A stretch of DNA of 64,000 nt, from NCBI GenBank assembly GCA_947632595.1, contig CANRPY010000001.1, positions 2,457 to 66,456 on the forward strand, in the 5' to 3' direction. Under the pieces are notes generated by a model. The model searched no databases, had not been told where the DNA came from, and worked only from the letters and a program-made list of their open reading frames with translations. The DNA is from an uncultured Bacilli bacterium (lineage in GTDB: Bacteria; Bacillota_I; Bacilli_A; RF39; UBA660). The position numbers and the translations under genes were made by a program. Shown here piece by piece: positions 28,798-56,220 of the stretch (within the stretch, counting starts at the first letter, position 1; every line of letters begins with the position of its first letter).

Positions 28798-28831
28798 TTT
28801 TTAATTGATATTTTTGTATCAGGATAAGACG

Positions 28832-29203: not shown

Positions 29204-29599
29204 TTATTTATATTTTAAGTTTTTAATATCTATATTCCATAATCCTAATTTACCATTTATCTCTTTATCATAATCAATCTTTTTCACATTTTTTAATTTC
29301 CAAGCATAACCACTTCTATATTTTGCACCATATGCTATATTATTTTCATTCATTATTTTACTATTTAATTTTTCATTAAATTCTAGGCAATCTTCTATTT
29401 CGGCTTCAGCAATAATTCTTTTTGATGGATAATCTAAATTTAAAAATTTAAATTTTTCCATTTCTTTTTTATCGACACCGGCTCCAGCATGGATTAATAC
29501 TTTACCTCTATAATTAGTTTTCCAAGACCTAAATTCATATTTTTTTATTCCTTCTGCAACTAGGGTAGCCCATGGTTGTTTTAATGTTAATATTTTCAT
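29204..29599 (-). CDS. ASCH-domain protein
   Basis: MKILTLKQPWATLVAEGIKKYEFRSW...GKVLIHAG is a typical ASCH (PUA-like) N-terminus. Confidence 0.7.
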   Translation of the reverse strand: MKILTLKQPWATLVAEGIKKYEFRSWKTNYRGKVLIHAGAGVDKKEMEKFKFLNLDYPSKRIIAEAEIEDCLEFNEKLNSKIMNENNIAYGAKYRSGYAWKLKNVKKIDYDKEINGKLGLWNIDIKNLKYK

Positions 29600-29689
29600 A
29601 AATAATCACCATTATTATTTTATCACAATCATTCTCATAATTCTTATGAATTTATACTCAGTATGTTATAATGTATATGGAGGGATAAT

Positions 29690-31810: not shown

Positions 31811-31842
31811 TTTTTTATCACTCCTAACTGACTTTTATTTAG

Positions 31843-34065: not shown

Positions 34066-34068
34066 ATT

Positions 34069-39506: not shown

Positions 39507-41198
39507 TTATCTTCTTTTTGATGGACCTTGTGCAAATATTTCTTTCAAGCCAAAATTTAATTCTTTGTTTAATAATTCTTCTAATTCTTTATATGCTCCA
39601 CTTGATGCTTGATAGCCGCCATTTAAAGTAGATGAAATAGCTAAATTGCATAGTTCTTTTTCAATTGGTGAAAAAATTCTTTTGCCTTTTTCATTTTCAA
39701 TACTTTTAACTATTGATCCTTCATTCCCTTGTAATGCCTTCCTAAATCTATTTAATGTTTCTATTCTTTCTCCATTATTTGTAACTATGCTCTCCGATTT
39801 TCCAGTGTATATGGAATTGGGCACATATATTCCTTTATCATTTTTATAATAATTTTCAACAAACGTTCTAAATATGAAGTCTTTCTTTTGCTTTCTTATA
39901 TTGATTAAATCTCTTAGTATCATTCTTACATCAAAACTGCTGTCTACCACATTATCATTGTATCTAGTTGGGAATATAGATACATATTTTTCGTTTTCAG
40001 AATTAATTCCATGATCTAATTGAACTAAACAAAAACAGGTTTTAAAAAAATCTCCTCTTATTAATGAGCTTGTTTTTAATATTATTTTTTCCCAAGGAAA
40101 TAATTGATATAGTTTTCCATTTTCTTCCACTAATCCACCATCTGCTATTATTCTTTCTTTATTATCTAATATTGCTTTTAATATAGCAAATGCAGAAGAG
40201 TTTTCATTAATTGGATAATATACTGAACCATCTGCTCTTACTCTTGAAAAGTATCTTTTTGTAGTTTCAGATAATATTTCTCCTTTTTGTATTCCTAGTA
40301 AATGTGGCAAATTATTTCTATTAATTTCGTAATAAAAGTCAAATTCAGAATCATCTTCTAATACCACTTTATTCATAACCGAATTACTTTTTTCTATTGG
40401 GGCATTCGGATTTTTTGTATAGAAAAATTTGTAAGTATCCACACATAATTCTAGATTATCGAATAAGTTTTTCATGACCTGCTTCATAATCTCATACGTA
40501 GATTGTGACCAAAGTATATCTTCTGCTCCAGGATAAGAAGATAAAATAATATTGTGACTTTCATCAGTAGTGGTTTTGGTCATTCCTTTTCCATCATCTC
40601 TAACATAGGTTATTGTTGGAATTCTCCTGCCACTTGTGTAAGTATCAAGTCCCTTTGCCTCTGTAACTTCGGCCAAATAATATGTTCCATCCTTTTTTTG
40701 TCTTAAAATTTGTCTTTTATCTTTTGGTGACCATCTTTCGAATTCCTCCTCTAATTGAATATTTGAAGCTTTTGAAGCTTCAATTAAATGTATTAAGGAT
40801 GCTTCATCAAATGTAAATCTTTTATTTAATTCATTTGCAATTTTATCTAAGTCTGAATCAATTATTTCCTGAAGCCCATTATCAAATCCCATTTTTTCTG
40901 CGATATTTAAGAATAATGATTTTATTTCATCTTGTTTTTTTGTTGCTATAGCGGCTTCTATTGGCATATTAAAATGAATTTCAGATAGTCGATCAATAAT
41001 TAGTCGGCTTAATTTCTTATATATGTTTTCAATGGCGTCTATTACTTCTGTTTCTTCTTCATCAAGAATTCTATAAGATTCAAGTTCTGATATTAAATAA
41101 CTAGAATTTTTTTTAATTATTTGCGTTAAAAAATCTATATTCATTACTTCCTGTCCAAAAATGGCTTTTAAAACCTCTAAATTCATCTCTGTTTTCAT
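39507..41198 (-). CDS. Large hypothetical protein (563 aa)
   Basis: Long ORF with normal codon texture. The segment NLPHLLGIQKGE...FAILKAILDNKERII...FPWEKIILKT faintly recalls phage/polyvalent-protein nuclease-like (PBECR-type) modules; not verifiable here. Confidence 0.4.
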   Translation of the reverse strand: MKTEMNLEVLKAIFGQEVMNIDFLTQIIKKNSSYLISELESYRILDEEETEVIDAIENIYKKLSRLIIDRLSEIHFNMPIEAAIATKKQDEIKSLFLNIAEKMGFDNGLQEIIDSDLDKIANELNKRFTFDEASLIHLIEASKASNIQLEEEFERWSPKDKRQILRQKKDGTYYLAEVTEAKGLDTYTSGRRIPTITYVRDDGKGMTKTTTDESHNIILSSYPGAEDILWSQSTYEIMKQVMKNLFDNLELCVDTYKFFYTKNPNAPIEKSNSVMNKVVLEDDSEFDFYYEINRNNLPHLLGIQKGEILSETTKRYFSRVRADGSVYYPINENSSAFAILKAILDNKERIIADGGLVEENGKLYQLFPWEKIILKTSSLIRGDFFKTCFCLVQLDHGINSENEKYVSIFPTRYNDNVVDSSFDVRMILRDLINIRKQKKDFIFRTFVENYYKNDKGIYVPNSIYTGKSESIVTNNGERIETLNRFRKALQGNEGSIVKSIENEKGKRIFSPIEKELCNLAISSTLNGGYQASSGAYKELEELLNKELNFGLKEIFAQGPSKRR

Positions 41199-41366: not shown

Positions 41367-42752
41367 TTATATACTAAATGTATTGTTTTGATCCATTGTT
41401 CTTAACTCTGGTGTTTGTTTTGTATCTTTTTTCTCTACTTGATTCGCTTCTTCTAGATCAACTGCTTTTACTCTCATGATATAGACATCTTCATTATTTT
41501 TAATATAGAAATAACATTTTTGATGTTTAGCAATATTGTAATACATGATTGGTAATTTTAAATTGTCTCTTACATCTAATAATTCTTCAAATTTACCAAT
41601 TTCCATTACATTGTATTTTTCTAGATCTAATCCTGTTTCTGTCTCTACAATTAATCTATCATATGTTTTTAAGATATCATCGATATATTTATCATAGATA
41701 CTCTTTGGACTATAAGATACTGCAATTAAACGGATAATCTTTACTAATAAGAATACGGATAATACAAAAGTAATAATCTCAAATGTAATTATTTTTGGAG
41801 TAAAGATTAATGCTCTTTCCATTGTAATTTCATTTGATTTACTTAAGTCATCGGAATCAAACTTTATTTGTACAGAGTTTTCTGATAATGGAATTGTAAT
41901 TCCACTTTCACTTTCATTGGCAAGATCTACATTGTATTTCTTACCATCTTTCATAACTTGTAAATATACTTTTAAGTAACTATCAGAGTTTACTCCATAA
42001 CTTGTTCTAAAAGAATTCGCAAGGTCATTAAAATGACCATAATCTATCTCTACATTTTGATTAATTGCGTATTCTTTATTATCTTTCATTGTTTCTTGTT
42101 CTGCTTCATATAAAGTATATTCTTTTTCAAAGTAATTTACTTTGGTTTGTGAGTTTGCAATGATTAAGTCTCCAATTACTTTATAATTAAAGTCTACTGT
42201 AGACTTCTTTTCAATATTGAATTTATAATTAAAATCAATACTTATTTTATCTATTAAGTTTGCAACATACATCATATCTTCTTCTAAGTAATCTTGTTCA
42301 TAGAAGTTATTTTGTTTTAAATAGACACGATAATTGGTTTCTTGTGTATCGGTATATTTTATGGCTTCTGGTTTCTTTAATGCGAATGATTCTAGTGTTA
42401 AACTAAAGAAACAGAATAGTACGGCAACAAATAGAATCAATAGTAATACTAATCGTTGAACATAACTTAAATATATTTTCTTTGCGAATGGTATTTTTTC
42501 TTCCGGATCTTTGCTTTTATGTATTTGTATTGGGCTCTGTGGTGTGATACTTGATGCTTGTACTTCAATGTGATCAGACATCTCAACATTTTTATCCACT
42601 AATCTATCACTTTCGATTGGGGCTACTTGTTGATTCGGTATTGGTCTATTCTGATTTATCGGCTCATTTATTTTCTCCACAGGCTCCGTGGATTTTACTT
42701 CTTGTTCATCGTCGAATTCTAGTTGTTCTATTTCGTCTTGCTTATTATCCAC
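41367..42752 (-). CDS. Single-pass membrane protein with disordered N-terminus and large extracellular domain (DUF5305-like context)
   Basis: TM LVLLLILFVAVLFCFFSLTL and a second TM near the C-terminal third. Sits directly upstream of SipW-like peptidase and TasA-like genes on the same strand. Confidence 0.45.
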   Translation of the reverse strand: MDNKQDEIEQLEFDDEQEVKSTEPVEKINEPINQNRPIPNQQVAPIESDRLVDKNVEMSDHIEVQASSITPQSPIQIHKSKDPEEKIPFAKKIYLSYVQRLVLLLILFVAVLFCFFSLTLESFALKKPEAIKYTDTQETNYRVYLKQNNFYEQDYLEEDMMYVANLIDKISIDFNYKFNIEKKSTVDFNYKVIGDLIIANSQTKVNYFEKEYTLYEAEQETMKDNKEYAINQNVEIDYGHFNDLANSFRTSYGVNSDSYLKVYLQVMKDGKKYNVDLANESESGITIPLSENSVQIKFDSDDLSKSNEITMERALIFTPKIITFEIITFVLSVFLLVKIIRLIAVSYSPKSIYDKYIDDILKTYDRLIVETETGLDLEKYNVMEIGKFEELLDVRDNLKLPIMYYNIAKHQKCYFYIKNNEDVYIMRVKAVDLEEANQVEKKDTKQTPELRTMDQNNTFSI

Positions 42753-42775
42753 AACATATCACCTCTAATCATCCC

Positions 42776-43900
42776 TTATTTTCCATTTAACCATACTGTT
42801 GGCAATCCAATATATGGTATTCTTAGATTTACAACTCCTATAATCATATCACTTGTTACAGGGTAACTATCTTCATCTTTATTAGCATCCCCTTTTGTGT
42901 AAAAATAAACCTTATTTTCATCTTTTATTTTTCTTTCAAGTCGATGCACTACGATAACATTTTCATACTTGTAAGCTATAACTTTCCCTACTTCTATGTC
43001 TTCATAATCTTTTTGTTTTTCAATGATTACGATATCTCCTTTTTTGATTTCTGGCGACATAGAACCACTTGCGATTGCTAGTGCAAAGTATTTGAAATAT
43101 CCACAAGTTATATAAATTAACATTATTGTAACTAATGAAGGTATTATAAGTGTTTTGAAATTCTTTTTATAATCTCTTTTTGTAATGTCTTCATCTTGAT
43201 ATTTTTGATAGAACTTATCGATTCTATTCATTAATAGAAGAGGAACAAATAACCATACAATTGAATAGATATACTGATTCGGATTTGGAATAAAAGGTAA
43301 TAGATACATGTATAATCCTGTAACTAATCGGTAAACCATCGAAGGTTTATATCCTGTTTTCATACTTAAATAACTGCACAATATGTTTATTGTGATTGTT
43401 GGTAGTATTGTGATTGCTAGGAAAATAAACTTCTCATATATTCCACTTGTTAAGTTGATATAGATTGCACTGGATATATCTAGGAAAACAAATAAGATGG
43501 TTGTTAAAATGATTAGTGTTTTATTTCCCTCTGATTTTTGTAACATTTCATACCTTAAGTATTCTTTTAGTAAGATTATTATGATAATAGGAAGTATAAT
43601 TTTTATCATACTTTCTATCGTATAATAATTATCTACTTTTGCAAATCCTAGTAGTATTCCTGATAAATAGTAAATTAGGAAGAATATAATTAGGAATATG
43701 ATTTCTTCCAATATAATATCTTTGGTATATCTATGCCGATCTCTTTCCAGTCCGAAAAAGATCTTCATTATGGCTAGAACAGCAAATAGAAATATAATCA
43801 TTATTGTATTATTTAATACACTAAATATAAAACTATTTACAATTAGGGCAAAAAATATTATTATCTCAAAAATGAATAAATTCCTATAGCCTCTTTTCAT
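42776..43900 (-). CDS. Polytopic membrane domain fused to SipW-type signal peptidase I (S26)
   Basis: About 260 aa with multiple TM helices, followed by ASGSMSPEIKKGDIVII (catalytic Ser context) and VVHRL. Confidence 0.65.
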   Translation of the reverse strand: MKRGYRNLFIFEIIIFFALIVNSFIFSVLNNTIMIIFLFAVLAIMKIFFGLERDRHRYTKDIILEEIIFLIIFFLIYYLSGILLGFAKVDNYYTIESMIKIILPIIIIILLKEYLRYEMLQKSEGNKTLIILTTILFVFLDISSAIYINLTSGIYEKFIFLAITILPTITINILCSYLSMKTGYKPSMVYRLVTGLYMYLLPFIPNPNQYIYSIVWLFVPLLLMNRIDKFYQKYQDEDITKRDYKKNFKTLIIPSLVTIMLIYITCGYFKYFALAIASGSMSPEIKKGDIVIIEKQKDYEDIEVGKVIAYKYENVIVVHRLERKIKDENKVYFYTKGDANKDEDSYPVTSDMIIGVVNLRIPYIGLPTVWLNGK

Positions 43901-43955
43901 CTTTTTCCTCCAAAATAGTTCTGAAAACTATATTAAGGTTTTATATAGTCTTCGT

Positions 43956-44636
43956 CTAATTACCATTAGATGAACTATAGTTCAATGTGATGTTTCCAAA
44001 ATCGACTTTAAAGTCTCCATCTACTGGTGTTGTATTGGTGTATGATAAATCGACTTTTACCTTAACAGCTTTCTTTACTTTTAATTCCATATCAGTAATT
44101 GGGTTAGCTGTATTTGTGGCATTGTATTCGTGGTCACCTATAGTAATTTTAATTGAAATATTTTCGCAGGCTGCTTGAACTAAATCGTCTCTTGCTACAT
44201 TACCATCTGGTACAGATGCACAGGTTGGTTTTTGTTTAGAGAAAGTTACTTTCTTTAAATAAGCATCTAGACTACCTTTATTGTATACATAGAATTCATA
44301 TGAAACGTTTTGCGCTTCTACTAAGTCATTGGTAAACGTTGCATTTAAATTACTTACCGTTGTATTGATAAGGGTAGCATTCTCTCCTGTTGCTCCTCCT
44401 GTTCCTGATGCGGTTACAGAACCTGGTAAAATATCGCTATCGTTTGTTGAAAATCCAACTACGAAGTTACCTTCTACTCCTTTTACTGTTGCGTTTTGTG
44501 TAATTGTCATATTTTGTGCGTAGGTTGCGAAACCTAGTGATACACCTAGAACTGCAATTACTAAAGCTATAATAGCTATAATTCTAGAACTTCTATCTTT
44601 TTCCATTTCTTTTTCCTCCATAAATGGTGACTCCAC
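43956..44636 (-). CDS. Secreted protein with SipW-cognate-like signal peptide (TasA/camelysin-like context)
   Basis: N-terminal IIAIIALVIAVLGVSLGFATYAQN resembles the ...GGGT(F/W/Y)A SipW-dependent signal. The mature part is a T/N/V-rich beta-type sequence. Confidence 0.5.
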   Translation of the reverse strand: MESPFMEEKEMEKDRSSRIIAIIALVIAVLGVSLGFATYAQNMTITQNATVKGVEGNFVVGFSTNDSDILPGSVTASGTGGATGENATLINTTVSNLNATFTNDLVEAQNVSYEFYVYNKGSLDAYLKKVTFSKQKPTCASVPDGNVARDDLVQAACENISIKITIGDHEYNATNTANPITDMELKVKKAVKVKVDLSYTNTTPVDGDFKVDFGNITLNYSSSNGN

Positions 44637-44755
44637 GATTTGTGCTATTCACACACTTTATAGTCTCCTATATATATTTTTACTACAATTTGCAAAAAAA
44701 GTCAAAATATTCCATCATATTATCCCGTAATTTGTCGTTTTTTTGTGAATGGGAA

Positions 44756-46492
44756 CTATTTTTGAACTCCTTTTTCGTTTATTTGGTCTTTTGAATCTTT
44801 TTTATCTAGAAAATCTAATATATATTTTACATTTTCCTCACTTGTTAATTGATTAAACTGTTCTGCTGTTACGCTACATTCAAATACTTTTTTCTCATCA
44901 TAAATATCTTGAAAAGTCATCAGAGCATCTTCTATTGTGTACTTTCCTTGAAATATATCTAGATCGACTTTTCCATGAGCAATACTATTTCTTAGATGTT
45001 CAATGATAGAGCGATTTCGTCTATATTTTTCATATCTTGTTTTCATAAACTCTTCACAAAGCAAAATCAACTCTTCTAATTGTTTATATTCTTCTTCTAG
45101 TGTTTTTAATAGACTTTGTAATTCTTGATAGGGCCTTCTTTTTTCTTCTATTCCTTCCTCTATTTGTTTTTTGATCTCCGTTAGGCTTCTTTTTATATTT
45201 TCTATTCTAAATTGAAGATAGTCTTTTTCCTTTTGCATTTTTCTGATTTGTTCTTGAAACTCAGGATAGTCTTTTTCTTCTAGGAAATTGACTCCTTTTA
45301 TTTCCTCTAAATTGAGTCTTGAAAAGTCTAATGCTTCTCCATTTATAATATCTCTTATATCTTCTTTATTCTCTATTTTTAGAATGGAATCCAGTCCATA
45401 GATATAAGTAAAGTAAAAGCTAGCTAGATATGCGGATAATATTGTTTTTTCATTGGTTAAGGCAAGGGGGATGGCATACTCACTTTCTCCTACTAGTTCT
45501 ACTACACTTTTTTTTCTTTTTTCTGATAGGTCTTTTAAAAAGACTTGGTTTGCTAAAAGCCCATGACAGATGCTTTTCTTTCCTCTATCATGGGTTGTTG
45601 CTTCATGAATCCAATGAGCTAAATATTTTTGTTGAAAGTATGGATCTAAGTCTTTTAAGAATGGTAGTTTTTGCAAATACATCTTTTTTACTTTTTCTAT
45701 TTGTTCTAATTCTGTAGCCGGTTTTTCTGTAATGGTTACCTTCATTCCTGTTGCATCTAATAATCTTTTGGCATGTTCTGTCTTTGGAATCTCTACTACT
45801 GAGTGTCCTCTTTCAATTTCCTTCATTACTTTGTCTTTTAGAAAATAAGCCATTTGTAAATAAGCTAGGTTTCTTTCTCTTAAAAGTTGTGGTTTATCTG
45901 TAATTTCTATATAAGAAATTCTTCTAATTGCGTCTTCTAAGTCTTCTTTGGTTCCTATTCTATTGTTTGTAAGAACATTTAAATTTCTTAAAATATCGGT
46001 TGTGTTTTCCCCATATTTCTTCATAAGAGTCCAATCATTTCCTAGATGTACGGCAAAGGCAACTAAGTCTGTTATGGGAATAGAGCCTGTCTTGCCTTCT
46101 ACTTCTATTGTGATATCTGATGAATCCATAGAAAAGTCCCCATGTGCTAGTTTGTTTCGTAAGGTATCTACTACTGATAAATTAGAAGAAAATGTGATAT
46201 CTCCTATCTTCCAGGTATCTCCTTCTTTTTTGGCAATCGTTCCAATATATCCTTCTAATAGTTTATCCACAAGAATTGTGGATAAATTTTTTGCTTGATC
46301 TTTTTTAATGTATTCTTCTTTCCACAACAAAAGAGCAAAAGTTGCATATCCAACTTTTAGCGCATCTAAATCAGAGTCTTCTTGCACGGGACTATCTCCA
46401 AAGGTTTCTAAATAGTTGATATAGTCTTTTGATGAGGAGATTAGTTTTTTGTAATACTCTATTTTCTTTTGCTTTCTCTCGCTCTTTTGCAT
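44756..46492 (-). CDS. Double-HEPN protein (two RNxxAH motifs) with central coiled coil
   Basis: LRNKLAHG (residues 111-118, nt 46142-46162) and LRNSIAHG (residues 500-507, nt about 44975-44995). A coiled-coil stretch EFQEQIRKMQKEKDYLQFRIENIKRSLTEIKKQIEE lies between them. GGAGG SD, 9 nt after the htrA-like stop. Confidence 0.6.
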   Translation of the reverse strand: MQKSERKQKKIEYYKKLISSSKDYINYLETFGDSPVQEDSDLDALKVGYATFALLLWKEEYIKKDQAKNLSTILVDKLLEGYIGTIAKKEGDTWKIGDITFSSNLSVVDTLRNKLAHGDFSMDSSDITIEVEGKTGSIPITDLVAFAVHLGNDWTLMKKYGENTTDILRNLNVLTNNRIGTKEDLEDAIRRISYIEITDKPQLLRERNLAYLQMAYFLKDKVMKEIERGHSVVEIPKTEHAKRLLDATGMKVTITEKPATELEQIEKVKKMYLQKLPFLKDLDPYFQQKYLAHWIHEATTHDRGKKSICHGLLANQVFLKDLSEKRKKSVVELVGESEYAIPLALTNEKTILSAYLASFYFTYIYGLDSILKIENKEDIRDIINGEALDFSRLNLEEIKGVNFLEEKDYPEFQEQIRKMQKEKDYLQFRIENIKRSLTEIKKQIEEGIEEKRRPYQELQSLLKTLEEEYKQLEELILLCEEFMKTRYEKYRRNRSIIEHLRNSIAHGKVDLDIFQGKYTIEDALMTFQDIYDEKKVFECSVTAEQFNQLTSEENVKYILDFLDKKDSKDQINEKGVQK

Positions 46493-46501
46493 ATTCCTCC
46501 A

Positions 46502-47566
46502 TTAACTTGCTTTCTTTAAGGTTATTGTTATATTCTTTTCTTTTTGATTTCTTATCACTTTTACTTTTATTTTGTCTCCTACTGAGTGTTGGTATAGTAC
46601 ATATTTTACATATGGGGTCTCTGTTATCTTAATTCCATCCATTTCTAGTAGAATGTCTCCTTTTTTTAATTTGTTGTCAGCACTACTCTTTTTTTTCGTA
46701 CTTAGTACTACCACTCCTTCTGTAATCTCACTTGGTATTTCAATGTCTTCTTCTAATAGTTTTGCGGTTGCGTTTACATCAACCATACTAATTCCTAATT
46801 CTGGCCATTCCACTTCTTTTCCTTTTTCTAGATTCTCTAGATATTTTTTTGCGGTCTCTATTGGAATTGCGAAGGACATTCCTTCTATTTCTTCTTTGAT
46901 TAGTTTCATAGTACAAATTCCTATTACTTCTCCTTTGGCATTTACAACAGGCCCTCCACTGTTTCCAGGGTTTACTGCTGCATCCAATTGAAGAACTTTC
47001 ATAAGCCATTCTGTGTTTTCTTCTTCTCCTCCAAGTGTTTGTACAATCCTATCTCTTCCTGACAAGATTCCAGAGGAAACGCTTCCTTGATATCTCTTAC
47101 TAATAGGAGATCCCACTACCATAATGGTATCCCCTATTTTTGTCTTGGTACTATCTCCTAGTGTTGCTACTTTTTTGGCATACTTCTTATCAATCTCAAT
47201 GACTGCTAAATCCAAATTAGAATCTTTGCCAAGAACTTTTGCTTTAGCTTCTTCCATATCCTGATTGGTTACTGTGATGTCTTCTCCAGATAATACATGT
47301 TCATTGGTTAAGATATAAGCTTTGCTACCTTTCTTTTTGTAGACAAAACCAGATCCTGTTGATAAAACTGCTGTTCCATTATAGCTTTCTATCGTTACAG
47401 TTGCTTCTTGAATTTTCTTTGTAGCACTTGCTAAAGAACTGGTGTTATTTCTTTCTACTTCTTTCATTCCTATGAAACAAATAAATAACGTTAATAGTAC
47501 TCCAACAAAAAAAGAAGAGAGAATTTCTATCCAATTGATTTCTACCTTTTTATTCCTCTTCTTCAT
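46502..47566 (-). CDS. htrA: HtrA/DegP-family membrane-anchored serine protease with PDZ domain
   Basis: N-terminal TM; His context ILTNEHV, Asp context DLAVIEI, Ser context NPGNSGGPVVN; C-terminal PDZ (LKKGDILLEMDG). Confidence 0.85.
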   Translation of the reverse strand: MKKRNKKVEINWIEILSSFFVGVLLTLFICFIGMKEVERNNTSSLASATKKIQEATVTIESYNGTAVLSTGSGFVYKKKGSKAYILTNEHVLSGEDITVTNQDMEEAKAKVLGKDSNLDLAVIEIDKKYAKKVATLGDSTKTKIGDTIMVVGSPISKRYQGSVSSGILSGRDRIVQTLGGEEENTEWLMKVLQLDAAVNPGNSGGPVVNAKGEVIGICTMKLIKEEIEGMSFAIPIETAKKYLENLEKGKEVEWPELGISMVDVNATAKLLEEDIEIPSEITEGVVVLSTKKKSSADNKLKKGDILLEMDGIKITETPYVKYVLYQHSVGDKIKVKVIRNQKEKNITITLKKAS

Positions 47567-48509
47567 TTGTAAAACTCCTCTCTATATTGGCAATATCTTT
47601 CCAATTCACAGGGAATCCCATTCTATTTAGTACCTCTGTTATTTGTATGGTATGTAGATTATAATCTAGTGTTTCTATTACATGATCTAATTCTAATACC
47701 ATGTTTTTAAAGTCTTCTTGTAGTAGTAATTGCTTCATAATAATAATAAGGGCAAATAAGTCATTCTTTCCTTGTACGTATTCTTCGTCTACTTTTTTAA
47801 TTCTTAATAATTGATGATAGACTGTGTCATCAATTGCTTTTTGGGTTTTATTTTCATATAAGATATCTTCATGAGCACATAAATTTCTATAGTTTGCTAA
47901 AATCGGTAAATAAGTAATCATCGTACTTGGTGTTACTTCATAAATATTCGCAATTTCTTTTTGATCTTCTGGTTTTAAAACTTGATATAGTTCACTTACA
48001 ATTCCAAAAGATAATACTTTTACTAAGATCCAAAGTGGTATATATCCATAATTTGATGCATAGTGTACTGTAGCAGTATGTTGTGCTCCATTTACTCGAA
48101 TTTGTCTTTTCATCTTTTTTAATAAGTCATTTAATTGTGCTTGTCTAGATGGTTCACTTGTAAAGTTTTTTGCTTTTAAATAATCTCTTTCTCGATATCC
48201 ATATTTTTTAGATAATTGATAAGACATAATAGACTTTAAGTTATTTTCTATTACTAATAGGTATTTAAATAAGATGTTTCTAAAGGAACGATCAAATAAG
48301 AAGAGACTATATAATTCTTCAAAGGTTGCTCCTTCTTTAAATCTTTTGTCTTCTTCTGATAGAACGAATAAATGACGATATCCATTTAAGAAGAAATAGT
48401 TTTCTCTTAACAACACTTTTTTAGCATATTTTTCATCACTTACGGTTAGTCCTTTGTATTTAAAGATTTCTATTTGTTCATCTAAGTTTTTAAAGTTTTT
48501 CTCTATCAT
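47550..48509 (-). CDS. Abi_2 (AbiD/AbiF-like) HEPN abortive-infection family protein
   Basis: N-terminus ...QIEIFKYKGLTVSDEKYAKKVLLRENYFFLNGY and the HEPN motif YRNLCAHED. The stop overlaps the htrA-like start by 17 nt. Confidence 0.7.
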   Translation of the reverse strand: MIEKNFKNLDEQIEIFKYKGLTVSDEKYAKKVLLRENYFFLNGYRHLFVLSEEDKRFKEGATFEELYSLFLFDRSFRNILFKYLLVIENNLKSIMSYQLSKKYGYRERDYLKAKNFTSEPSRQAQLNDLLKKMKRQIRVNGAQHTATVHYASNYGYIPLWILVKVLSFGIVSELYQVLKPEDQKEIANIYEVTPSTMITYLPILANYRNLCAHEDILYENKTQKAIDDTVYHQLLRIKKVDEEYVQGKNDLFALIIIMKQLLLQEDFKNMVLELDHVIETLDYNLHTIQITEVLNRMGFPVNWKDIANIERSFTNEEEE

Positions 48510-48608
48510 AGTCTCACCTATTATAGATTATAGCATATTATTTTCCAAAAGTACTTAAATTTTCTAGATTTTGTATGCTATAATAATGATAAGTAGGTTT
48601 TAGGGGGA

Positions 48609-49583
48609 ATGGTTATGCCGTCAACAGCAACGCATGCTTTTTTCGTGAAGGATGTTTATGATATTTTACCAGAAAAAATTGGAAAGAATTTGAATCTATC
48701 CAAATGTAGAATGTATGGTCAAAGTATTGATAGTTTAAAATTTTATCGTTTATTTTCTTTTTTACCGGGTAAGAAGATTCGTGATTTTCAGAAGTATTTT
48801 CATGAAAATCAATCTCAAGAATTTTTTTGTAATTTGCTTCACTATATGAAGGATAATGATATTCATGATGAAGATACCTATTCCTATTTATTTGGTAGTA
48901 TTTGCCATTATGCATTAGATTCTACGATTCATCCTTATATTGTTTATCGTAGTGGAATTTTTGATTCTAAAAATCCATCTACTTATCATTATAATAATGT
49001 TCATACGTTTATGGAGAATTTTATTGATAATGATATGATTCAAAGAAGAACGAAAACCAATCCTTATTACTTTGACTTTTCTCAATTCTGCTTTTCGATT
49101 TCTCCTTTTTCTACGGAGTTAGCGAATACCATTGATTTTGCTTATTATAATACTTTTGGGATTTCTAATATGAGTCAGATTTATTATGATTCTCTAAAAC
49201 AGATGAAGATGGCTATTACTCTTTTTCGAAGAGATCCTAGGGGGATTAAAAAGTTCTTTTATCAGTTACTAGATTCCTTTACAAGTAGACGTTGTTTTCG
49301 ATTTGAAGCAGTTAGTTACCATGGAGAATTAGAGGATAAGCATGATTATTTAAATAGTCAACATCGACTATGGAGAAATCCTGCCATTTATGATAAAACT
49401 AGTACAGAGTCTTTTGTTGATTTATATCTTAAAGCTATTAAGTTTGCAAAAGTGTTAATGTGTGCCAGTTGTGATTACTTAAGTGGGAAGAATATTGATT
49501 TAGAAAAGATTTTTGATAATACAAGTTATGTTACTGGTCTTAATTGTAATGACAAAAGAGAATTAAAATATTTTGATTTTTAA
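48609..49583 (+). CDS. Zinc-dependent phospholipase C-family protein (tentative)
   Basis: The N-terminal MPSTATHAFF pattern and His-rich segments (CHYALDSTIHPY) recall the PF00882-type family. Confidence 0.4.
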   Translation: MVMPSTATHAFFVKDVYDILPEKIGKNLNLSKCRMYGQSIDSLKFYRLFSFLPGKKIRDFQKYFHENQSQEFFCNLLHYMKDNDIHDEDTYSYLFGSICHYALDSTIHPYIVYRSGIFDSKNPSTYHYNNVHTFMENFIDNDMIQRRTKTNPYYFDFSQFCFSISPFSTELANTIDFAYYNTFGISNMSQIYYDSLKQMKMAITLFRRDPRGIKKFFYQLLDSFTSRRCFRFEAVSYHGELEDKHDYLNSQHRLWRNPAIYDKTSTESFVDLYLKAIKFAKVLMCASCDYLSGKNIDLEKIFDNTSYVTGLNCNDKRELKYFDF

Positions 49584-49591
49584 TTCTTTTT

Positions 49592-50650
49592 TTGTATAAT
49601 TTTTTTCTTTTCTTCCATTTTATTAATGGTGATAGTATGATTTCTAGTTATGAAGTTCGTCAAGAAAATGGAGAAGAAGTTTTATATTTTCATCTTTCTT
49701 ATCAATATGAGTTTGCAGAGGAGTTTTCTACCTATGCAGAAAGAGATTTAAGGATTTTATCGAATCAGTTTTTAAATACCAATCAAATTCCTTTTCATGG
49801 AAATCAGGTTTATTTTTTATTAGATGGGAAAATTGTTCGTAAGATTTCTCTTAAAAAGGAATCTTTCTTTTATGGACCTGATCAATTTGTTTTATCGATT
49901 CAGATTGATGAGAAAGCTTATAGTGAAATCTTTTTAAGAGAGTATTTGTTAAGTATTTTGTTTTCTTATTATTCTCCTCAGTATGGAGATGAAGTTTTTA
50001 AATGTATTTGTGTTTTATTTCAAACGTATGCTTATAAAATGATGAGAGATTTTTCTTGTCTTCCTCATCATTCTCTTTTTGGTGAGTATGTTGCTTCTAT
50101 AGAGTATCAAGATACTTATCAAAATTATAAGGCTATGGTGGATCGATTTAATGGAATTATTGATTCTGTTTCTTGTATTTTTCTTGGGTATCAAAAAGAG
50201 TATATTCTTCCTTTTATTCATCTTTCTAATAGTGGGAAGACGTTATCGAATATTAAATATCCTTATTTAAGTAGTGTTAAGAGTTTGTGGGATATTACTT
50301 CTCCTAATTATTTATCTTTTGTGGATTATGATTTTTCTACTCTTAGTCGTCTTTTTCATGTAAAAATTACTTCACAGTCTAAGATTCAAATCTTACATCA
50401 AGGGGAACTTGTACAGTTTGGATATAAGAATTTTTCTCTTTTAGAAATTAAGAATCTTTTAAAATTAAAGTCTGTTGATATTCTTATTCTTGTTTATCGA
50501 GATCGTGTCCGTTTTGTTACGAGAGGGGTTGGGAATGCTCTTGGACTTAGTCTTTTTGGAGCTTGTACGATTGAAGAAAATGGTGGAAAGTATGATCAAA
50601 TCTTACGCTATTATTTTCCAAAGTGTATGCTTTATCAAAATGTAAAATAA
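49592..50650 (+). CDS. SpoIID/LytB-domain protein with degenerate catalytic region
   Basis: CVLFQTYAYKM (cf. AVAARTYA), HLSNSGKT (cf. SxSGGxT), RGVGNALGLSLFGA (cf. RGxGHGVGMSQxGA), ILRYYFP. The probable true start is MISSYEV at about 49637. Confidence 0.6.
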   Translation: MYNFFLFFHFINGDSMISSYEVRQENGEEVLYFHLSYQYEFAEEFSTYAERDLRILSNQFLNTNQIPFHGNQVYFLLDGKIVRKISLKKESFFYGPDQFVLSIQIDEKAYSEIFLREYLLSILFSYYSPQYGDEVFKCICVLFQTYAYKMMRDFSCLPHHSLFGEYVASIEYQDTYQNYKAMVDRFNGIIDSVSCIFLGYQKEYILPFIHLSNSGKTLSNIKYPYLSSVKSLWDITSPNYLSFVDYDFSTLSRLFHVKITSQSKIQILHQGELVQFGYKNFSLLEIKNLLKLKSVDILILVYRDRVRFVTRGVGNALGLSLFGACTIEENGGKYDQILRYYFPKCMLYQNVK

Positions 50651-50652
50651 AA

Positions 50653-50673
50653 AAGAACAACAATTTTGTTCTT
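50653..50673. terminator. Bidirectional intrinsic terminator
   Basis: AAGAACAA-caatt-TTGTTCTT flanked by an A-run and a T-run, between convergent gene ends at 50650 and 50678. Confidence 0.7.
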
Positions 50674-50677
50674 TTTA

Positions 50678-50890
50678 TTATTTTCCTGTTAAATCACTGA
50701 TTGCTTTATCGGCATCTTTATTTAACTCTACAATATTTTCTAAGAATTTTGCATAGGCTTCTACCGTATCGGTAAAATCTACTAAGTCTTCTATTTCTCT
50801 TCCTCTTGCCATCACTTCTACGGCTTCGGCTTCTGTTCTTAGTTCTTTTGCGAAAGCTAGAACTTGTTCATAGGTTAGTTTCCCTATCAT
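50678..50890 (-). CDS. Small helical protein, last gene of the T7SS-like operon
   Basis: 70 aa with predicted helix-turn-helix-hairpin character and no WXG. 4-nt overlap with the upstream gene. Confidence 0.4.
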   Translation of the reverse strand: MIGKLTYEQVLAFAKELRTEAEAVEVMARGREIEDLVDFTDTVEAYAKFLENIVELNKDADKAISDLTGK

Positions 50891-51369
50891 TCTCCTAACA
50901 CCTCCAAACCTCCTGGCGCTGCCGGTATTGTTGGAACTTCTGGGATGCTTACAACTTCTTGTTGTGGGGCTTGTTGTACTGGTGCTGTCTCAGGAATTGT
51001 CTCCATTTGTTGTGGCATAGCTTCTGTTGGAAGAGAAGCCATATCGCTTGTTGGCTGTTCTAAGGATTGTGGTTGTGTCTCTGGAGCTAGGCTTTCTACC
51101 GGTTGAGTTGTAGGAGAATCCAAGTTTTCTTCCGGTTGAGTTGTGGAAGTTGACTCTTCTGTTGTTGAGGAATCCGTAATATCACTCATATCTACTTTTA
51201 CAGTTGGTGGTTGTTTTATTAATTCTGCTTTTGATGTTACAACACTTTTAAATTCATCAATTGACTCAATATAATTCTTATTATCTATGTTGTTCCAACC
51301 TACCTTTAATTTTTCTAAGTAATCGAATATCTTGTTTACGGCTGTTACATATCGATTATAATCATCCAT
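50887..51369 (-). CDS. WXG100-like (degenerate) N-terminal helical domain with a P/T/Q/E-rich tail; candidate T7SS substrate
   Basis: N-terminal roughly 80 aa are helical, with LKVGWNNID in place of WxG. The C-terminal low-complexity TTQPEENLDSPTTQPVESLAPETQPQ repeats. Position is directly after the YukD-like gene. Confidence 0.4.
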   Translation of the reverse strand: MDDYNRYVTAVNKIFDYLEKLKVGWNNIDNKNYIESIDEFKSVVTSKAELIKQPPTVKVDMSDITDSSTTEESTSTTQPEENLDSPTTQPVESLAPETQPQSLEQPTSDMASLPTEAMPQQMETIPETAPVQQAPQQEVVSIPEVPTIPAAPGGLEVLGE

Positions 51370-51382
51370 GTTACCCCTCCTA

Positions 51383-51640
51383 CTATATTAATATAATTCT
51401 AGAACCGTTCTTTAAATCTGTATCTCGAATTGTTTTATTAACATCGTAAATTTCTCCTGTTTCTTTACTATATAAATTGGTATCTTGTCTTGGAATATAG
51501 GCTTTGTCTGTTAATTCAATTAAAGAATTTTCTATTAGACTTTTGATGGTTCCTACTTTTTTATTAATTGGAATAAACATATCGTATTTTACTTCAATAA
51601 GAGGGATTTCTAATTCTATTAATATTTTATTATTTTCCAT
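51383..51640 (-). CDS. esaB: EsaB/YukD-like ubiquitin-fold protein
   Basis: 85 aa. The pattern IELEIP..KYDMFIP..KVGTIKSLI...LKNGSRIILI is typical of YukD. Immediately downstream of essC. Confidence 0.6.
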   Translation of the reverse strand: MENNKILIELEIPLIEVKYDMFIPINKKVGTIKSLIENSLIELTDKAYIPRQDTNLYSKETGEIYDVNKTIRDTDLKNGSRIILI

Positions 51641-51648
51641 ATTTCCTC

Positions 51649-54600
51649 CTATTCATCTGCCATTAACTTCATTAACTCAGCTTTTCCTTTTTTGATTACA
51701 TAACCAAATCCTGGATCGATTTCTGCTCTTAGAATACGAGAATTGGTTGTTACTTTTAGAGTAAATTGGTTACCAATTCCATTACCCATCCAAATACCTT
51801 CAGCCATATCACAGTTTCCTTTGTACCAAGCTTCGAAGTTGATTGCTTTAATGGCATCAATGGTATCTACTATGATAAAGCGGATGTTTCCTTTTTGTTT
51901 CGAATCGGTAATCATTCCTGTTAGAGAGGCTTTGGTTGTAGCATCCATCTTGGATAACATGGAGTTAATATTCATTAAGAAAGTAAATACTGTTTTTGTT
52001 GGATCGTTTTGTTCTACTGATTGTTTTAATTTTTCAATCGATGCACTACAATCATCGGTACTATATGTTGCATTTGGAAGACTTAAGTCACTTAGGATAC
52101 TATTCGGATCTAGGACAATAACTTCCACATTTTGAACGGATAATAAGTTCTTGATGAATCCTCTGATAAATCCTGGTTCTGCAGTAATATCATCACCAGT
52201 CATGTTATACATAAACTTGTTGTTGAAGTCGACAGTAGCTGTCTCCAATGTTTCTTTGGTAACACCAACTGGAATCGTCTTTAAGTTTCCTAGGTACTCT
52301 GATACATACTCTTGAGATACTACTTCTGGTAGTACTGGAATCTTTGTTGCTTTGTAGTCACAAATCATATTTAATTTTTCACAAACTACTTTGATATAGT
52401 CTGCCATTTTTTCTTCTTTATATGGGTATGCTGTTTGGAATTCAAAGATGGCATCTAATAGAATCATACCACGACCATATGCTTTTGATGGTTCCTTCTT
52501 ACGTACTCCTGGAATAACGGATGAATAATCTCCAGGGTCGTTAAATTGTAATACGACATTTTGTCTGAAGTTTTGTCTTAGACGATAGCGAACGGTATTT
52601 GGACCATTGGTACTGAAGACAAATACAACACCATATTTTAAGCAATCTCTTGTCATTTGTCCTATCATTTCTTCATAATCTGCATAGGTCTCGATAAAGG
52701 CCTCTACATTATTAATAATGATGACAATTAATGGGATTTGTTTTCCACCATGGTTGATATAGAAGTCGAAAGATCCATTATAATCTGTAAATAATTTCTT
52801 TCTCTCTTCTAGGACATTATCAATATACTTAAATAAGTTGGCTATTTTTTCAGCATCGTTTCCTAAGATAACTTCTCCAACATGTGGAGCATTTCTAAAC
52901 ATCGTTAATGTTTCTGCTCCAAAGTCTAAGATGTAGAAGTTAACTTCATTGGAATTATGTCCAGTAATACATGAATAGATAATTCCTGTAAGCATTAATT
53001 CCTTACCATTTCCAGCAGAACCGAATACTATGGTATTTCCTAATTCGGATAGTGGTAATGTTAAAAGGTTTTGTGCTTGGTTATCTGGATCATCGTATTC
53101 TCCAATGATTGGATTAATCACATTCTTTACTGGTTTATACTGATACTTTTCTTTTAAGGCATCTGTATAAATAACGTCTGGAATTCTTGGTAACCATAAT
53201 TGTTCAATTTGAATATTTTCACTTTTAGCTTCTTCTACGATGTATTTAATAATATTGGTGATTTCTTCTCCTTTAGACTGAACAATAATATCATCTTTTT
53301 TGGTATCTAATGATTTAATTGGAGATCCAACATTATCTACAATGGTGATAGATTGATCTACTTTTTTCTTTCTTTTTTCTGTTGGATAATATTGTGCTCC
53401 TGCCCATGCTGCTTGTCCCATTGCGAATAGTTCGTTGTAACCTACTTGTAAGTAGAAACGTCCGGTATTTTTTAACTCTGCTGCATCTGGACATTTAATC
53501 ATATCCATACTATCTGATTTATCTTGTACTCTTAAACATACACGGAATTTAGAGTTGGACCAGATTTGGTCATTAACAACACCACTTGGTTTCTGGGTTG
53601 CTAGAATAAGGTGAACTCCTAGGGAACGTCCGATACGAGCAGTTGAAATTAATTGTTCCATGAACTCTGGTCTTTGATCTTTTAATTCGGCGAACTCGTC
53701 GGAAACAATAAATAAGTGAGAAATTGGTGTATCTACTAATCCTCTACGATATAGGTTTTGATATTTATAAATATCGATGGTACTTTCATTTAATTTATCT
53801 CTTGCTTCATTAAATTGTCTTTGACGTTTTCTTAACTCTGATTGAATGGATGCTAAGGAACGGTTCATTTCTACGGTATCTAGGTTGGTAATCGTTCCTG
53901 CTAAGTGTGGTAGTTTTACTCCAGTTTCTCTGTTTTCAAAAGCTCCAGTTAAACCTCCACCTTTATAGTCGATTAGAATGAAAGAGACTTCATATGGGTG
54001 ATAGTTAATTGCCATTGATAAGATATAGGTAATGATAAATTCTGATTTACCAGAACCGGTCATACCAGCAATTAATCCATGTGGTCCATGTGCTTTTTCA
54101 TGTAAGTCTAGTTTAAATAATTCTCTTGCTTTATCAAAGCCAACGGGTGCCTGTAGAGACTTCGTTGGGTCATTTACTTTCCAACGGTTTAAAATATTTA
54201 ATTGTTCTACCATACCAACATTACACATTTCAAGGAAAGATACACTGGTTGGTAAGGCTTGTGCTTCTTTGGCAATATCAATTGGAATATTACTAATGAT
54301 TTTACAACATTCATAGATATTTAATGTTGGATCAAAGTCTGCAACAAACTCTTTTTGTTTGTTGGCAACTAATTCGTTTTCAAATACTCCTGATTTTTTA
54401 TCCCCGATACTAATAAATGCTTTACATTCATTCGGGATATTTACAAGTCTTGGACTTACGACAACTAAACTAAATCCATAATTGACTGGCATACTAGTAA
54501 CATCTTTTAATAATTCAATATCTCTTACCGATTTATAGTCATCTGTTAGGATTAAGTAATATGGTTTATAACTATGATAGTCTGCTCCATTTACATCCAT

Positions 54601-56220
54601 TTTTCCATTATTATCTGTAAATTTTCTACTTTGCATTTCTTTTTCTAGTTCTAGAGATATTTGTTTTGCTTCATCTAGATTGGTTGCGAAATAACGGAAT
54701 GTTTTTTCATTATTCCAACAATGTGGTGCTATTTTTAAGTATTCCCAATTACTCTCATTTTGACTATTGGTAAATAACACTATCTTTAAATCTTCATAAC
54801 TATGATAAGTAATCATTTGTAGAATTAGTCCATCTACAAATTGTTTTTTATTGGTTGCTGTACCAATGATTGCTACTATATTACGATTAATAAAGTTAAG
54901 AGAGATTGGTACATTTTCTAGTGTTCTAGATACAGCACCTACTTTGTATACTTCTTTTAGTAAGTCATCTGTTTTTAAAGCAAAGTGTTCTTCTGGAATA
55001 CTAACGACTCCTCGTAGTTCTGAGGAACCTACTCCTAATCTTAAGTCTAAGAAATCTACTTGACCGATTTCTCTTTCCCATAGATTTCTTTTCTTTTGAT
55101 AGATAATTTCTTTGGTTTGATCTAGTGGTAGATAATTATCAATCAAGATTTGTCTTTGCATTTTCATTTCTGCTTGAATATTTTCTTTTTTGGTATCTAG
55201 ATATTTTAAGTATTTTACGTTTCTTTCTTTTTCTGCTTTTTTCATTTGTTTCTTTTGGAAACGTTTTTGTAGGCTTGGCCATACTAACATAGAAGACATC
55301 ATGGCTCCCATCATAACAAGAGTTGGAGCTGCTGATTCCCAGTCTGTTGTTCCATTGATGACTCCTTGTAGAGCAGAGATTCCTGTTGACATAGAAGACA
55401 TAGCCATAGTCATCATTGGTCCTAAGGTATAAATTAATGGTGTATTATCTTCTTGCATTTGGGTACCTGGAGGTGGATCAATTACGATATTGGCATCTAC
55501 AATTCCGGTTTTAAAACGAGGTGCTCTATAGAAGTAATCATCTTCTTTATAAAATTCTATGGTTTCTTCATCTGGATTATCAAATTCTGTTTGTTTTTGT
55601 ACAAAGGATGAAATAGACTCTAAGTAATTATTATCTATACTTAAATTTGGTCCAATATTATTAATAATAAGGGTATCTTTTAAGACAATGATTTTTAATC
55701 CCATGATAAAAATAATATCACCATATTGTAATTGTCTTGAAGTGATAGCAATTCCATTTACATAGGTTCCGTACTTACTATTTAAGTCTTGTACTACCCA
55801 TACACCATTGTTATAAATTAATTTTGCATGTTCTCTTGATACTAACGGAAAGTTAAAACAGATTGGGGCTTTTCCATAATTACCAATTAAAAGTTCATTT
55901 TTATCTCGTAAACGAAGTCGATAACTTTCTTTATCTACTGTTGGGGAACAGTATAGAATTACATATTCGTTATCGGTATTAATTTTCAAAAAATATAAGC
56001 TGTAATCTTTTAAGTAAGCAGATTCTACTTCCATCTCTCCAGACATGATTTTTGTTTCAAAGTCTGACTTTATTTTCCATTTTCCATCTTCTTCTTCAAC
56101 GTTAATTAAGTTTCTTACGTTTCCTAAATAATCGTTATCTGTAATCCAATAGTTTCCAGAAATTTTATTTGGCAGAGTGAAGTTATATATTTTCTTTTTC
56201 TTGATTAACCTTACAATCAT
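51649..56220 (-). CDS. essC: Type VII secretion FtsK/SpoIIIE-family ATPase EssC (N-terminal FHA domains, 2 TM, three ATPase modules)
   Basis: FHA-like REHAKLIYNNGVWVVQDLNSKYGTYVNG. TM pair LGPMMTMAMSSMSTGI / LVMMGAMMSSMLVW. Walker A GLIAGMTGSGKSE, Walker B LFIVSDEFAEL, plus further degenerate P-loops (FGSAGNGKE). Confidence 0.88.
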   Translation of the reverse strand: MIVRLIKKKKIYNFTLPNKISGNYWITDNDYLGNVRNLINVEEEDGKWKIKSDFETKIMSGEMEVESAYLKDYSLYFLKINTDNEYVILYCSPTVDKESYRLRLRDKNELLIGNYGKAPICFNFPLVSREHAKLIYNNGVWVVQDLNSKYGTYVNGIAITSRQLQYGDIIFIMGLKIIVLKDTLIINNIGPNLSIDNNYLESISSFVQKQTEFDNPDEETIEFYKEDDYFYRAPRFKTGIVDANIVIDPPPGTQMQEDNTPLIYTLGPMMTMAMSSMSTGISALQGVINGTTDWESAAPTLVMMGAMMSSMLVWPSLQKRFQKKQMKKAEKERNVKYLKYLDTKKENIQAEMKMQRQILIDNYLPLDQTKEIIYQKKRNLWEREIGQVDFLDLRLGVGSSELRGVVSIPEEHFALKTDDLLKEVYKVGAVSRTLENVPISLNFINRNIVAIIGTATNKKQFVDGLILQMITYHSYEDLKIVLFTNSQNESNWEYLKIAPHCWNNEKTFRYFATNLDEAKQISLELEKEMQSRKFTDNNGKMDVNGADYHSYKPYYLILTDDYKSVRDIELLKDVTSMPVNYGFSLVVVSPRLVNIPNECKAFISIGDKKSGVFENELVANKQKEFVADFDPTLNIYECCKIISNIPIDIAKEAQALPTSVSFLEMCNVGMVEQLNILNRWKVNDPTKSLQAPVGFDKARELFKLDLHEKAHGPHGLIAGMTGSGKSEFIITYILSMAINYHPYEVSFILIDYKGGGLTGAFENRETGVKLPHLAGTITNLDTVEMNRSLASIQSELRKRQRQFNEARDKLNESTIDIYKYQNLYRRGLVDTPISHLFIVSDEFAELKDQRPEFMEQLISTARIGRSLGVHLILATQKPSGVVNDQIWSNSKFRVCLRVQDKSDSMDMIKCPDAAELKNTGRFYLQVGYNELFAMGQAAWAGAQYYPTEKRKKKVDQSITIVDNVGSPIKSLDTKKDDIIVQSKGEEITNIIKYIVEEAKSENIQIEQLWLPRIPDVIYTDALKEKYQYKPVKNVINPIIGEYDDPDNQAQNLLTLPLSELGNTIVFGSAGNGKELMLTGIIYSCITGHNSNEVNFYILDFGAETLTMFRNAPHVGEVILGNDAEKIANLFKYIDNVLEERKKLFTDYNGSFDFYINHGGKQIPLIVIIINNVEAFIETYADYEEMIGQMTRDCLKYGVVFVFSTNGPNTVRYRLRQNFRQNVVLQFNDPGDYSSVIPGVRKKEPSKAYGRGMILLDAIFEFQTAYPYKEEKMADYIKVVCEKLNMICDYKATKIPVLPEVVSQEYVSEYLGNLKTIPVGVTKETLETATVDFNNKFMYNMTGDDITAEPGFIRGFIKNLLSVQNVEVIVLDPNSILSDLSLPNATYSTDDCSASIEKLKQSVEQNDPTKTVFTFLMNINSMLSKMDATTKASLTGMITDSKQKGNIRFIIVDTIDAIKAINFEAWYKGNCDMAEGIWMGNGIGNQFTLKVTTNSRILRAEIDPGFGYVIKKGKAELMKLMADE

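Follow-up and report, generated by a model that had tools for sequence, protein, structure and literature searches.

The 64,000-nucleotide (nt) stretch of DNA analysed here (the window) comes from an uncultured Bacilli bacterium of the RF39 lineage (contig CANRPY010000001.1) and carries, on its minus strand, three tightly packed, operon-like genes: abi_2 (48509..47550), which codes for an Abi_2/AbiD protein of 319 amino acids (aa) predicted to be cytoplasmic; htrA (47566..46502), which codes for a membrane-anchored S1C serine protease of 354 aa; and H578 (46492..44756), which codes for a predicted cytoplasmic protein of 578 aa that belongs to an accessory, uncharacterised family. Read directly, the DNA shows that the end of abi_2 runs 17 nt into the start of htrA (47550-47566), and the htrA stop (TAA, 46502-46504) is followed by TGGAGGAAT and then by the H578 ATG at 46492, with a spacer of 9 nt that includes a GGAGG Shine-Dalgarno (SD) sequence. 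A first-pass annotation of this DNA had given the same gene identities, layout and junctions, and had proposed the trio as a candidate RNase/protease defence system. No terminator-like site is found on the coding strand within or between the three genes and this, together with the open reading frame (ORF) overlaps and the short spacing, suggests that abi_2, htrA and H578 are co-transcribed in this genome. The reading favoured here, with some confidence, is that the locus holds two independent things, an old abi_2-htrA operon and a passenger, H578, probably transcribed along with it.

The product of the first gene is a clear member of the AbiD/AbiD1/AbiF family (PF07751), with full-length profile matches. 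Residues 32-218 match the Pfam model PF07751 (E=1.6e-41), residues 3-308 match AbiD of PADLOC (E=1.3e-61) and the protein is also recovered by PHROG 2158, ‘abortive infection resistance protein’ (E=9e-71). A sequence match to the solved AbiF structure (PDB 8VZ6, E=5.8e-15) includes the catalytic R-x4-H HEPN motif, YRNLCAHED (residues 207-215, nt 47865-47891, minus strand), which aligns to the TRNSCCHH region of 8VZ6_A. The domain spans most of the protein and its R-x4-H is aligned with that of a characterised AbiF, in line with the HEPN assignment made for this gene in the first-pass annotation. Its nearest described kin are the abortive-infection proteins of this family, among them those of the AbiF-AbiFr type III toxin-antitoxin system (PbAbiF, 8VZ6; Clostridioides difficile AbiF-RCd22, PMC12373285). 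By homology with AbiF 8VZ6, the active site of Abi_2 would presumably form across a homodimer, and the protein, which has no transmembrane (TM) segment, is predicted to be an RNase. Compared with other AbiD/AbiF proteins, it is unusually conserved: it is the best-conserved protein of the neighbourhood, with 56-86% identity across the related set, and the motif N[YF]RNLCAHE[DE] is invariant in 81/81 orthologues.

The second gene codes for a protein that resembles the Gram-positive HtrA/DegP (S1C) proteases in its TM anchor, its trypsin-like H/D/S triad and its single PDZ domain. It matches Trypsin_2 (E=5e-29) and, at its C-terminus, PDZ_2 (E=8e-15) in Pfam, and the predicted triad (H90/D119/S203) lies in the motifs TNEHV, DLAVI and GNSGG. 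The best NCBIfam matches are HtrA/Do-family models (about 1e-68), although the score of 230 bits is well under the equivalog cut-off of 650, which makes this protein, unlike usual HtrA/DegP members, a divergent HtrA. A single hydrophobic TM segment (residues 10-37) follows a basic tail, MKKRNKK, and such an N-terminal hydrophobic segment is present in 68/70 HtrA orthologues; the protein can thus be described, as it had been before, as a membrane-anchored HtrA-type protease. Because a basic N-terminus precedes a single TM segment, the positive-inside rule places the catalytic and PDZ domains outside the cytoplasm, and the predicted cytoplasmic tail comprises only about 9 residues. The protease domain also matches two protease modules of PADLOC, RT-Protease_XI (2e-22) and LmuA (9e-16), because the trypsin fold is common to HtrA and to defence proteases. 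As with typical HtrA/DegP genes, it lies in some lineages beside ychF-rpsF-ssb; an origin-proximal htrA is common in Bacillota.

A protein search with Abi_2 returned so many orthologues of 77% identity or more that it contained no outgroups; therefore, loci were retrieved through Abi_2 alone in a metagenome scan, which gave 80 loci with Abi_2 proteins within the identity range given above. Of the 64 loci with 1.2 kb or more of downstream sequence, 63 have htrA as the gene immediately behind abi_2, and in these 63 the gap between both genes is always between -47 and +11 nt, so that they overlap or abut. In contrast to usual HtrA/DegP genes, htrA has in these loci no promoter region of its own, and its start lies in or right after abi_2. 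The exception is L112, the Abi_2 of which is 56% identical and has no adjoining htrA. The linkage of Abi_2 and HtrA is, therefore, more than an accident of one genome. The genes that flank the pair vary on both sides: a phospholipase-C-like gene lies upstream of abi_2 in most loci, and rpsI, a CwlD-type amidase gene or small unknown genes elsewhere, while in more distant lineages the pair is flanked by rpsI, the CwlD-type amidase gene, ychF-rpsF-ssb (downstream of htrA in some lineages) and a RimO-like gene. These ribosomal and housekeeping flanks suggest that the pair sits in the core genome and not in an island. AbiD/AbiF systems are typically found on plasmids, prophages or defence islands and are patchily distributed (PMC12373285), whereas gene 1 lies here in a core-genome operon with htrA, outside any plasmid, prophage or defence island, and its locus is fixed, being kept in all 84 related loci. 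Judged by gene order in the loci compared, abi_2-htrA is an ancient two-gene operon, fixed in a clade of uncultured gut and rumen Bacilli. The alternative offered beforehand, that htrA serves ordinary envelope quality control and that the HEPN genes were inserted beside it, agrees with H578 and applies to Abi_2 only as a very old insertion that has since become fixed.

A consensus scan finds a near-consensus operon promoter (TTGGAA-17-TATAAT) at 48519..48548 on the minus strand. The region comprises a possible -35 (TTGGAA, 48548-48543), an extended -10 (TGCTATAAT, 48535-48527) and a second TATAAT (48525-48520), which are followed by the SD GGTGA (48518-48514) and by the abi_2 ATG at 48509. In an alignment of the upstream regions (68 distinct regions, the first 45 of which were inspected), TGnTATAAT, nTATAATA, GGTGA and ATG occur at fixed spacing in most loci. 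The promoter region is conserved almost base for base across L034-L117, while the Abi_2 proteins are 56-86% identical, suggesting a strong constraint on the expression of the operon. The AbiF toxins that have been characterised are counteracted by an RNA which is encoded in cis, upstream of the toxin gene, and which contains abiF motifs (PMC12373285, PMC12737573). In contrast to AbiF systems, gene 1 is accompanied here neither by the abiF RNA motif (RF03085) nor by space for it, since the leader between promoter and abi_2 start has only about 12 nt and the gap upstream of abi_2, mostly 60-120 nt, is shared with a divergent gene, leaving no room for an upstream non-coding RNA. Rfam searches gave no match at E<=1 in 43000-51000 and no family at gathering score in the whole window, and the abiF RNA had no match at E<=0.1 in four diverse related loci; a cis antitoxin RNA of the AbiF type was thus not found, which leaves a divergent, unmodelled RNA elsewhere as a possibility.

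These data bear on a serious, if unlikely, alternative, in which Abi_2 and HtrA are a true two-component system, or Abi_2 is a domesticated RNase that tunes htrA and envelope-stress mRNAs, H578 being optional. In the two-component version, HtrA would sense envelope damage or stress (phage adsorption, injection or lysis from within) and would be coupled to the Abi_2 RNase. Such a role would agree with the abi_2-to-htrA order, kept with overlapping or abutting genes in 63/64 loci despite the changing flanks, and with the conservation of promoter and leader. Abi_2 is also the slowest-evolving gene nearby and its motif is invariant, a pattern that defence toxins do not usually show and that agrees with a fixed role in the cell; moreover, since the known antitoxin RNA of AbiF is missing, Abi_2 must be controlled in some other way. 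However, there is no known mechanism that leads from an extracytoplasmic HtrA domain, with its very short cytoplasmic tail, to a soluble cytoplasmic RNase, and the conservation of the pair may simply be inherited, the loci being from a single clade. The two genes may also be locked together because htrA now depends on the abi_2 promoter, and the Abi_2 of L112 does without a neighbouring htrA. A joint literature search for Abi_2 and HtrA gave only unrelated, mostly eukaryotic work among the matches listed.

H578 contains two Rx4H motifs near opposite ends of the chain. The first one, LRNKLAHG (residues 111-118, 46139..46162, minus strand), is placed at the end of a helix (104-116) that is followed by a three-stranded sheet, and the second one, LRNSIAHG (residues 500-507, 44972..44995, minus strand), lies in a C-terminal unit similar to HEPN proteins of the pEK499_p136 type. 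Neither RNxxAHG motif varies among 14 homologues that are 39-58% identical, and across 79 family members (18-57% identity) the R and H of each motif show a conservation of at least 90%, which argues that the two motifs are not due to chance. In these 79 members, R112/K114/H117/G118 and R501/N502/H506/G507 are conserved at 90% or more and N493 is invariant. The middle region between the motifs (about 390 aa) is helical and coiled-coil, and the protein has no TM segment. In an AlphaFold2 model (predicted local distance difference test (pLDDT) 84.5, predicted template modelling score (pTM) 0.81), each motif closes a helix and has a small sheet behind it, and ahead of the second motif there is a long helical hairpin (H411-445, H449-485). 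When all of 1.84 billion cluster representatives are scanned, the family comprises 213 clusters at E<=1e-3, mostly of 540-610 aa and aligning end to end, which come from gut and rumen metagenome-assembled genomes (MAGs) labelled Bacilli, Bacillales, Mollicutes or Tenericutes bacterium. This family was previously undescribed.

H578 itself has no match in PADLOC, NCBIfam or PHROG and nothing at E<0.001 in Pfam, where no HEPN family appears even at an E-value limit of 10. At the level of the family, 10/79 members match Pfam PF18736 (HEPN pEK499_p136) through the C-terminal unit, one of them above the gathering score (member P0006, 28.8 bits for a gathering score of 26.6), and a few members match HEPN_Swt1 or RiboL-PSP-HEPN. 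An hhalign comparison of the N-terminal (1-165) and C-terminal (400-578) parts gives a probability of 90% (E=1.5e-6, 81 columns), the aligned columns running through helix, motif, beta-sheet and helix, which suggests that a HEPN-like unit was duplicated within H578 long ago. Homologues show weak matches between the N-terminal unit and Abi_2 (E=0.018-0.18), and in hhalign runs of the H578 parts against a shallow Abi_2 alignment the motif alone was aligned (E=0.035). The C-terminal unit is, from these comparisons, likely a HEPN domain, and for the N-terminal unit this is plausible. The two motifs and their positions were correctly described in the first-pass annotation, while the HEPN label put on them was overstated, as it rests on family-level evidence.

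Two described groups invite comparison with H578. The pEK499_p136 HEPN proteins are considered active (Rx4-6H conserved) and are linked to restriction-modification (R-M), ADP-ribosyltransferase (ART)/Macro and Pgl systems (Anantharaman et al. 2013, PMC3710099); in a literature search, the name pEK499_p136 occurred in one paper only. H578 differs from them in that the protein of the window falls short of the model, in its additional N-terminal HEPN-like unit and long helical/coiled-coil region, and in its neighbourhoods, which mostly contain housekeeping genes. The other group is Cas13, with which H578 shares the presence of two Rx4H motifs near opposite chain ends with helical domains between them, and a composite RNase site is the natural inference from two such motifs in one chain. 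Unlike Cas13, H578 is only 578 aa long, has a small beta-sheet behind each motif and lacks a CRISPR array: as had been noted, none lies near the locus, repeat scans finding no array in the 64-kb window (where there is one weak tandem repeat) and no spaced repeat family within its 38-56 kb part, so that the adjacent array of a Cas13-like effector is missing. Neither an H578 profile nor Foldseek gave any similarity to Cas13 or AbiF, in sequence or fold, among PDB entries.

Of the Abi_2-htrA loci, 48 extend 2 kb or more beyond htrA; H578 lies behind htrA in 3 of them and is absent from the other 45. The first position after htrA is occupied in these 48 loci by 20 gene families, which include CorA, a HerA/DUF87 ATPase, YchF, a RimO-like enzyme and thioredoxin-like proteins. 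Accessory genes take this place in L035 (8037-11072) and L037 (9093-12954); in some relatives a HerA/DUF87-type ATPase gene is followed by one for a Mob_Pre relaxase, and in another relative CorA is followed by an opposite-strand SpaA-domain gene, a MazG-like gene and a gene for a Schlafen-group-3-type (SLFN-type) helicase. The variety of ATPase, relaxase and CorA occupants suggests that the region behind htrA is a hotspot at which accessory or mobile genes insert.

When loci are collected through H578, homologues of 39-58% identity show the same order (type VII secretion system (T7SS) genes EssC-YukD-WXG, a divergent Zn-phospholipase-C-like gene and Abi_2-HtrA-H578), the whole neighbourhood being syntenic; one of these lineages has a CorA gene between the last two. 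In the syntenic loci with H578, this protein is 29-55% identical and HtrA 38-53%, and the paired identities of Abi_2 and H578 are 86/47, 85/55, 80/46, 78/39 and 76/29. H578 identity thus drops in step with that of Abi_2, which fits vertical descent with fast divergence and many losses, and not repeated acquisition. For more distant homologues (21-28% identity), examined in 15 other species, up to 10 kb of sequence on each side contains no gene for Abi_2 or HtrA. The H578 homologue is in a different position in almost every species and the neighbours of the distant homologues are mostly housekeeping genes, such as those for ClpP, penicillin-binding proteins (PBPs), tRNA synthetases, GatA/B, EzrA, ThyA and ABC transporters. 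The sole clear defence-island context seen for the family is L012 (2112-11719), where an H578 homologue lies behind a type I R-M operon in which a methylase and a specificity subunit are identified, with an unannotated 999-aa ORF ahead; the homologue also follows the gene of a 306-aa protein with an Rx4H motif of its own, RHQVNH. A tblastn search with H578 against 50,697 phage and 72,556 plasmid records gave no match, indicating that H578 is not a mobile-element gene. On the evidence of gene order, Abi_2, HtrA and H578 are not a conserved unit.

In the reading preferred here, transcription would start at the conserved promoter and run through abi_2 and htrA and, in this genome, on through H578. 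HtrA would be in charge of the ordinary, membrane-anchored quality control of proteins outside the membrane, while Abi_2 would be a cytoplasmic AbiD/F-type HEPN RNase, long retained under strong purifying selection and controlled in a way that is not of the AbiFr type. H578 would be a dispensable, fast-evolving passenger in the variable slot downstream of htrA; its two HEPN-like units could form a composite RNase site, either within one chain or across a dimer, which the helical/coiled-coil middle region would gate, and the protein would act alone as a toxin or as an abortive-infection-type effector. Most likely, H578 is a toxin or defence protein with a predicted RNase activity of the HEPN type that works on its own. 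HtrA would not act on either HEPN protein, since its catalytic domain and the HEPN proteins are predicted to be on opposite sides of the membrane, which makes a direct activation of the RNases by the protease unlikely.

Several observations weigh against this explanation. The near-universal overlap of abi_2 and htrA across changing flanks is a usual sign of functional coupling, and the explanation gives the co-expression of the pair without a stated reason; it also leaves unexplained how a HEPN RNase can be expressed from an apparently strong promoter when no antitoxin is seen. As the loci were all sampled from a single clade, their conservation is in part shared ancestry. As for H578, the protein of the window reaches no Pfam HEPN model, and a Foldseek search with its full model gave no match at E<0.001 in PDB or BFVD, the top PDB match being the HEPN toxin RnlA with a non-significant E=0.24. 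A model of the N-terminal domain (pLDDT 81.6) retrieved no HEPN structure from PDB, and nothing at all at E<0.001, and the 79-member profile found no HEPN protein among PDB sequences, only coiled-coil noise. Finally, the mostly housekeeping neighbours of distant H578 homologues, of which only that of L012 adjoins a type I R-M system, show no defence role by context.

The last points would also fit a different view of H578, as a lineage-specific RNA-processing or structural protein of small-genome Bacilli, whose RNxxAHG motifs would be cellular or non-catalytic. The family is confined to uncultured Bacilli/Mollicutes-type MAGs, is present in single copy per locus, usually amid the housekeeping genes listed above (aminoacyl-tRNA synthetases among them), has no match in the phage and plasmid collections and has no structural match to any HEPN nuclease. 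This role is nevertheless quite improbable: H578 is dispensable inside one clade (3/48 loci), it diverges two to three times faster than its neighbours, its position differs in almost every species, members of the family match conflict-system HEPN families (pEK499_p136, Swt1 and RiboL-PSP), and one homologue lies behind a type I R-M operon.

The original proposal of a three-gene defence module, in which the HtrA-type protease would sense infection and activate or partner both HEPN RNases, is very improbable: in spite of the 17-nt overlap, the 9-nt gap, the lack of terminator-like sites between the ORFs, the same order in at least 12 loci of other species (H578 39-58% identical) and the matches of the protease domain to PADLOC defence modules, the phyletic pattern disfavours it, as H578 is missing from 45/48 Abi_2-htrA loci, is separated from htrA by CorA in several lineages and occurs in all 15 distant loci examined without either partner. 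The PADLOC matches reflect the trypsin fold, the best full-length matches being housekeeping HtrA/Do proteins with TM and PDZ, and sensing or activation of the RNases by a membrane HtrA is topologically awkward, with the protease domain predicted outside and both HEPN proteins without TM segments. A serine protease gene beside nuclease-type effectors does recall protease-coupled defence systems, such as the type III-E Craspase, the reverse transcriptase (RT)-protease UG/Abi class XI, Lamassu LmuA and Avs1. The proteases of the Craspase, RT-protease, Lamassu and Avs1 systems are cytoplasmic and often fused to a sensor or effector; the protease of the present locus, in contrast to them, is TM-anchored, bears a PDZ domain and is predicted to face outwards, and its supposed partner H578 is usually absent.

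Other genes of the window deserve mention. A type VIIb-like secretion cluster (50678-56220, minus strand) codes for EssC (1523 aa, FHA and FtsK_SpoIIIE domains), a YukD-like 85-aa protein, a 160-aa Pro/Thr/Gln-rich protein and a 70-aa WXG100-like protein. In close relatives the cluster keeps its place beside Abi_2-htrA, and its membership in the unit was rejected because the T7SS genes are missing upstream in more distant Abi_2-htrA loci. On the other side of the locus, the stretch 41367-44636 (minus strand) codes for a 226-aa secreted protein with one TM/signal segment, a SipW-type signal peptidase (374 aa) that is fused to a multi-TM N-terminal region, and a DUF5305 protein, and looks like a TasA/SipW-like fibre or secretion cassette. 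This cassette recurs near the locus in relatives, in either orientation; the TasA-like, SipW and DUF5305 genes were also rejected as part of the unit, because their distance and orientation vary or they are absent. Next to it, a 563-aa ORF (39507-41198, minus strand) has no TM segment and no match in Pfam, PADLOC, NCBIfam or PHROGs. Further away, in the 26-38 kb part of the window, the GC content falls to 0.23-0.27 (26064-35199). This low-GC stretch contains genes for a large serine recombinase (26064-27722), a C5 cytosine DNA methylase (30677-31810) that faces an unannotated 331-aa ORF (29690-30685), and an AAA ATPase (34069-35199) directly upstream of a 740-aa subtilase S8 protease (31843-34065); it has the appearance of an integrated island that carries an R-M system together with an ATPase/protease pair, the latter itself a possible defence candidate.

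Tight packing and synteny in near relatives were misleading at this locus, and it was the sampling by each gene separately that told the conserved pair from the passenger. What is new here is a fixed, antitoxin-less Abi_2 in an operon with htrA and an undescribed, putatively dual-HEPN family, and not a categorically new system. The H578 proteins are compact, combine two HEPN-like units and have no relative of known structure that could be detected; if they are RNases, they would be candidates for a new kind of defence or toxin protein that works alone, from a gut lineage that has been little studied. A bolder, and doubtful, reading would join both parts: a domesticated, antitoxin-less AbiD/F RNase tied to htrA, plus a family of dual-HEPN defence RNases built like Cas13 and independent of a guide. 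If this were true, stress on the envelope or on secretion, or a phage attack at the envelope, would be coupled through Abi_2 to the cleavage of RNA. Were the coupling between Abi_2 and htrA functional, this would be the first AbiD/F-type toxin RNase that is a fixed, antitoxin-less core gene tied to envelope proteostasis, and it would bear on the domestication of abortive-infection toxins and on the path from AbiF to Cas13, in which an RNA partner is central.

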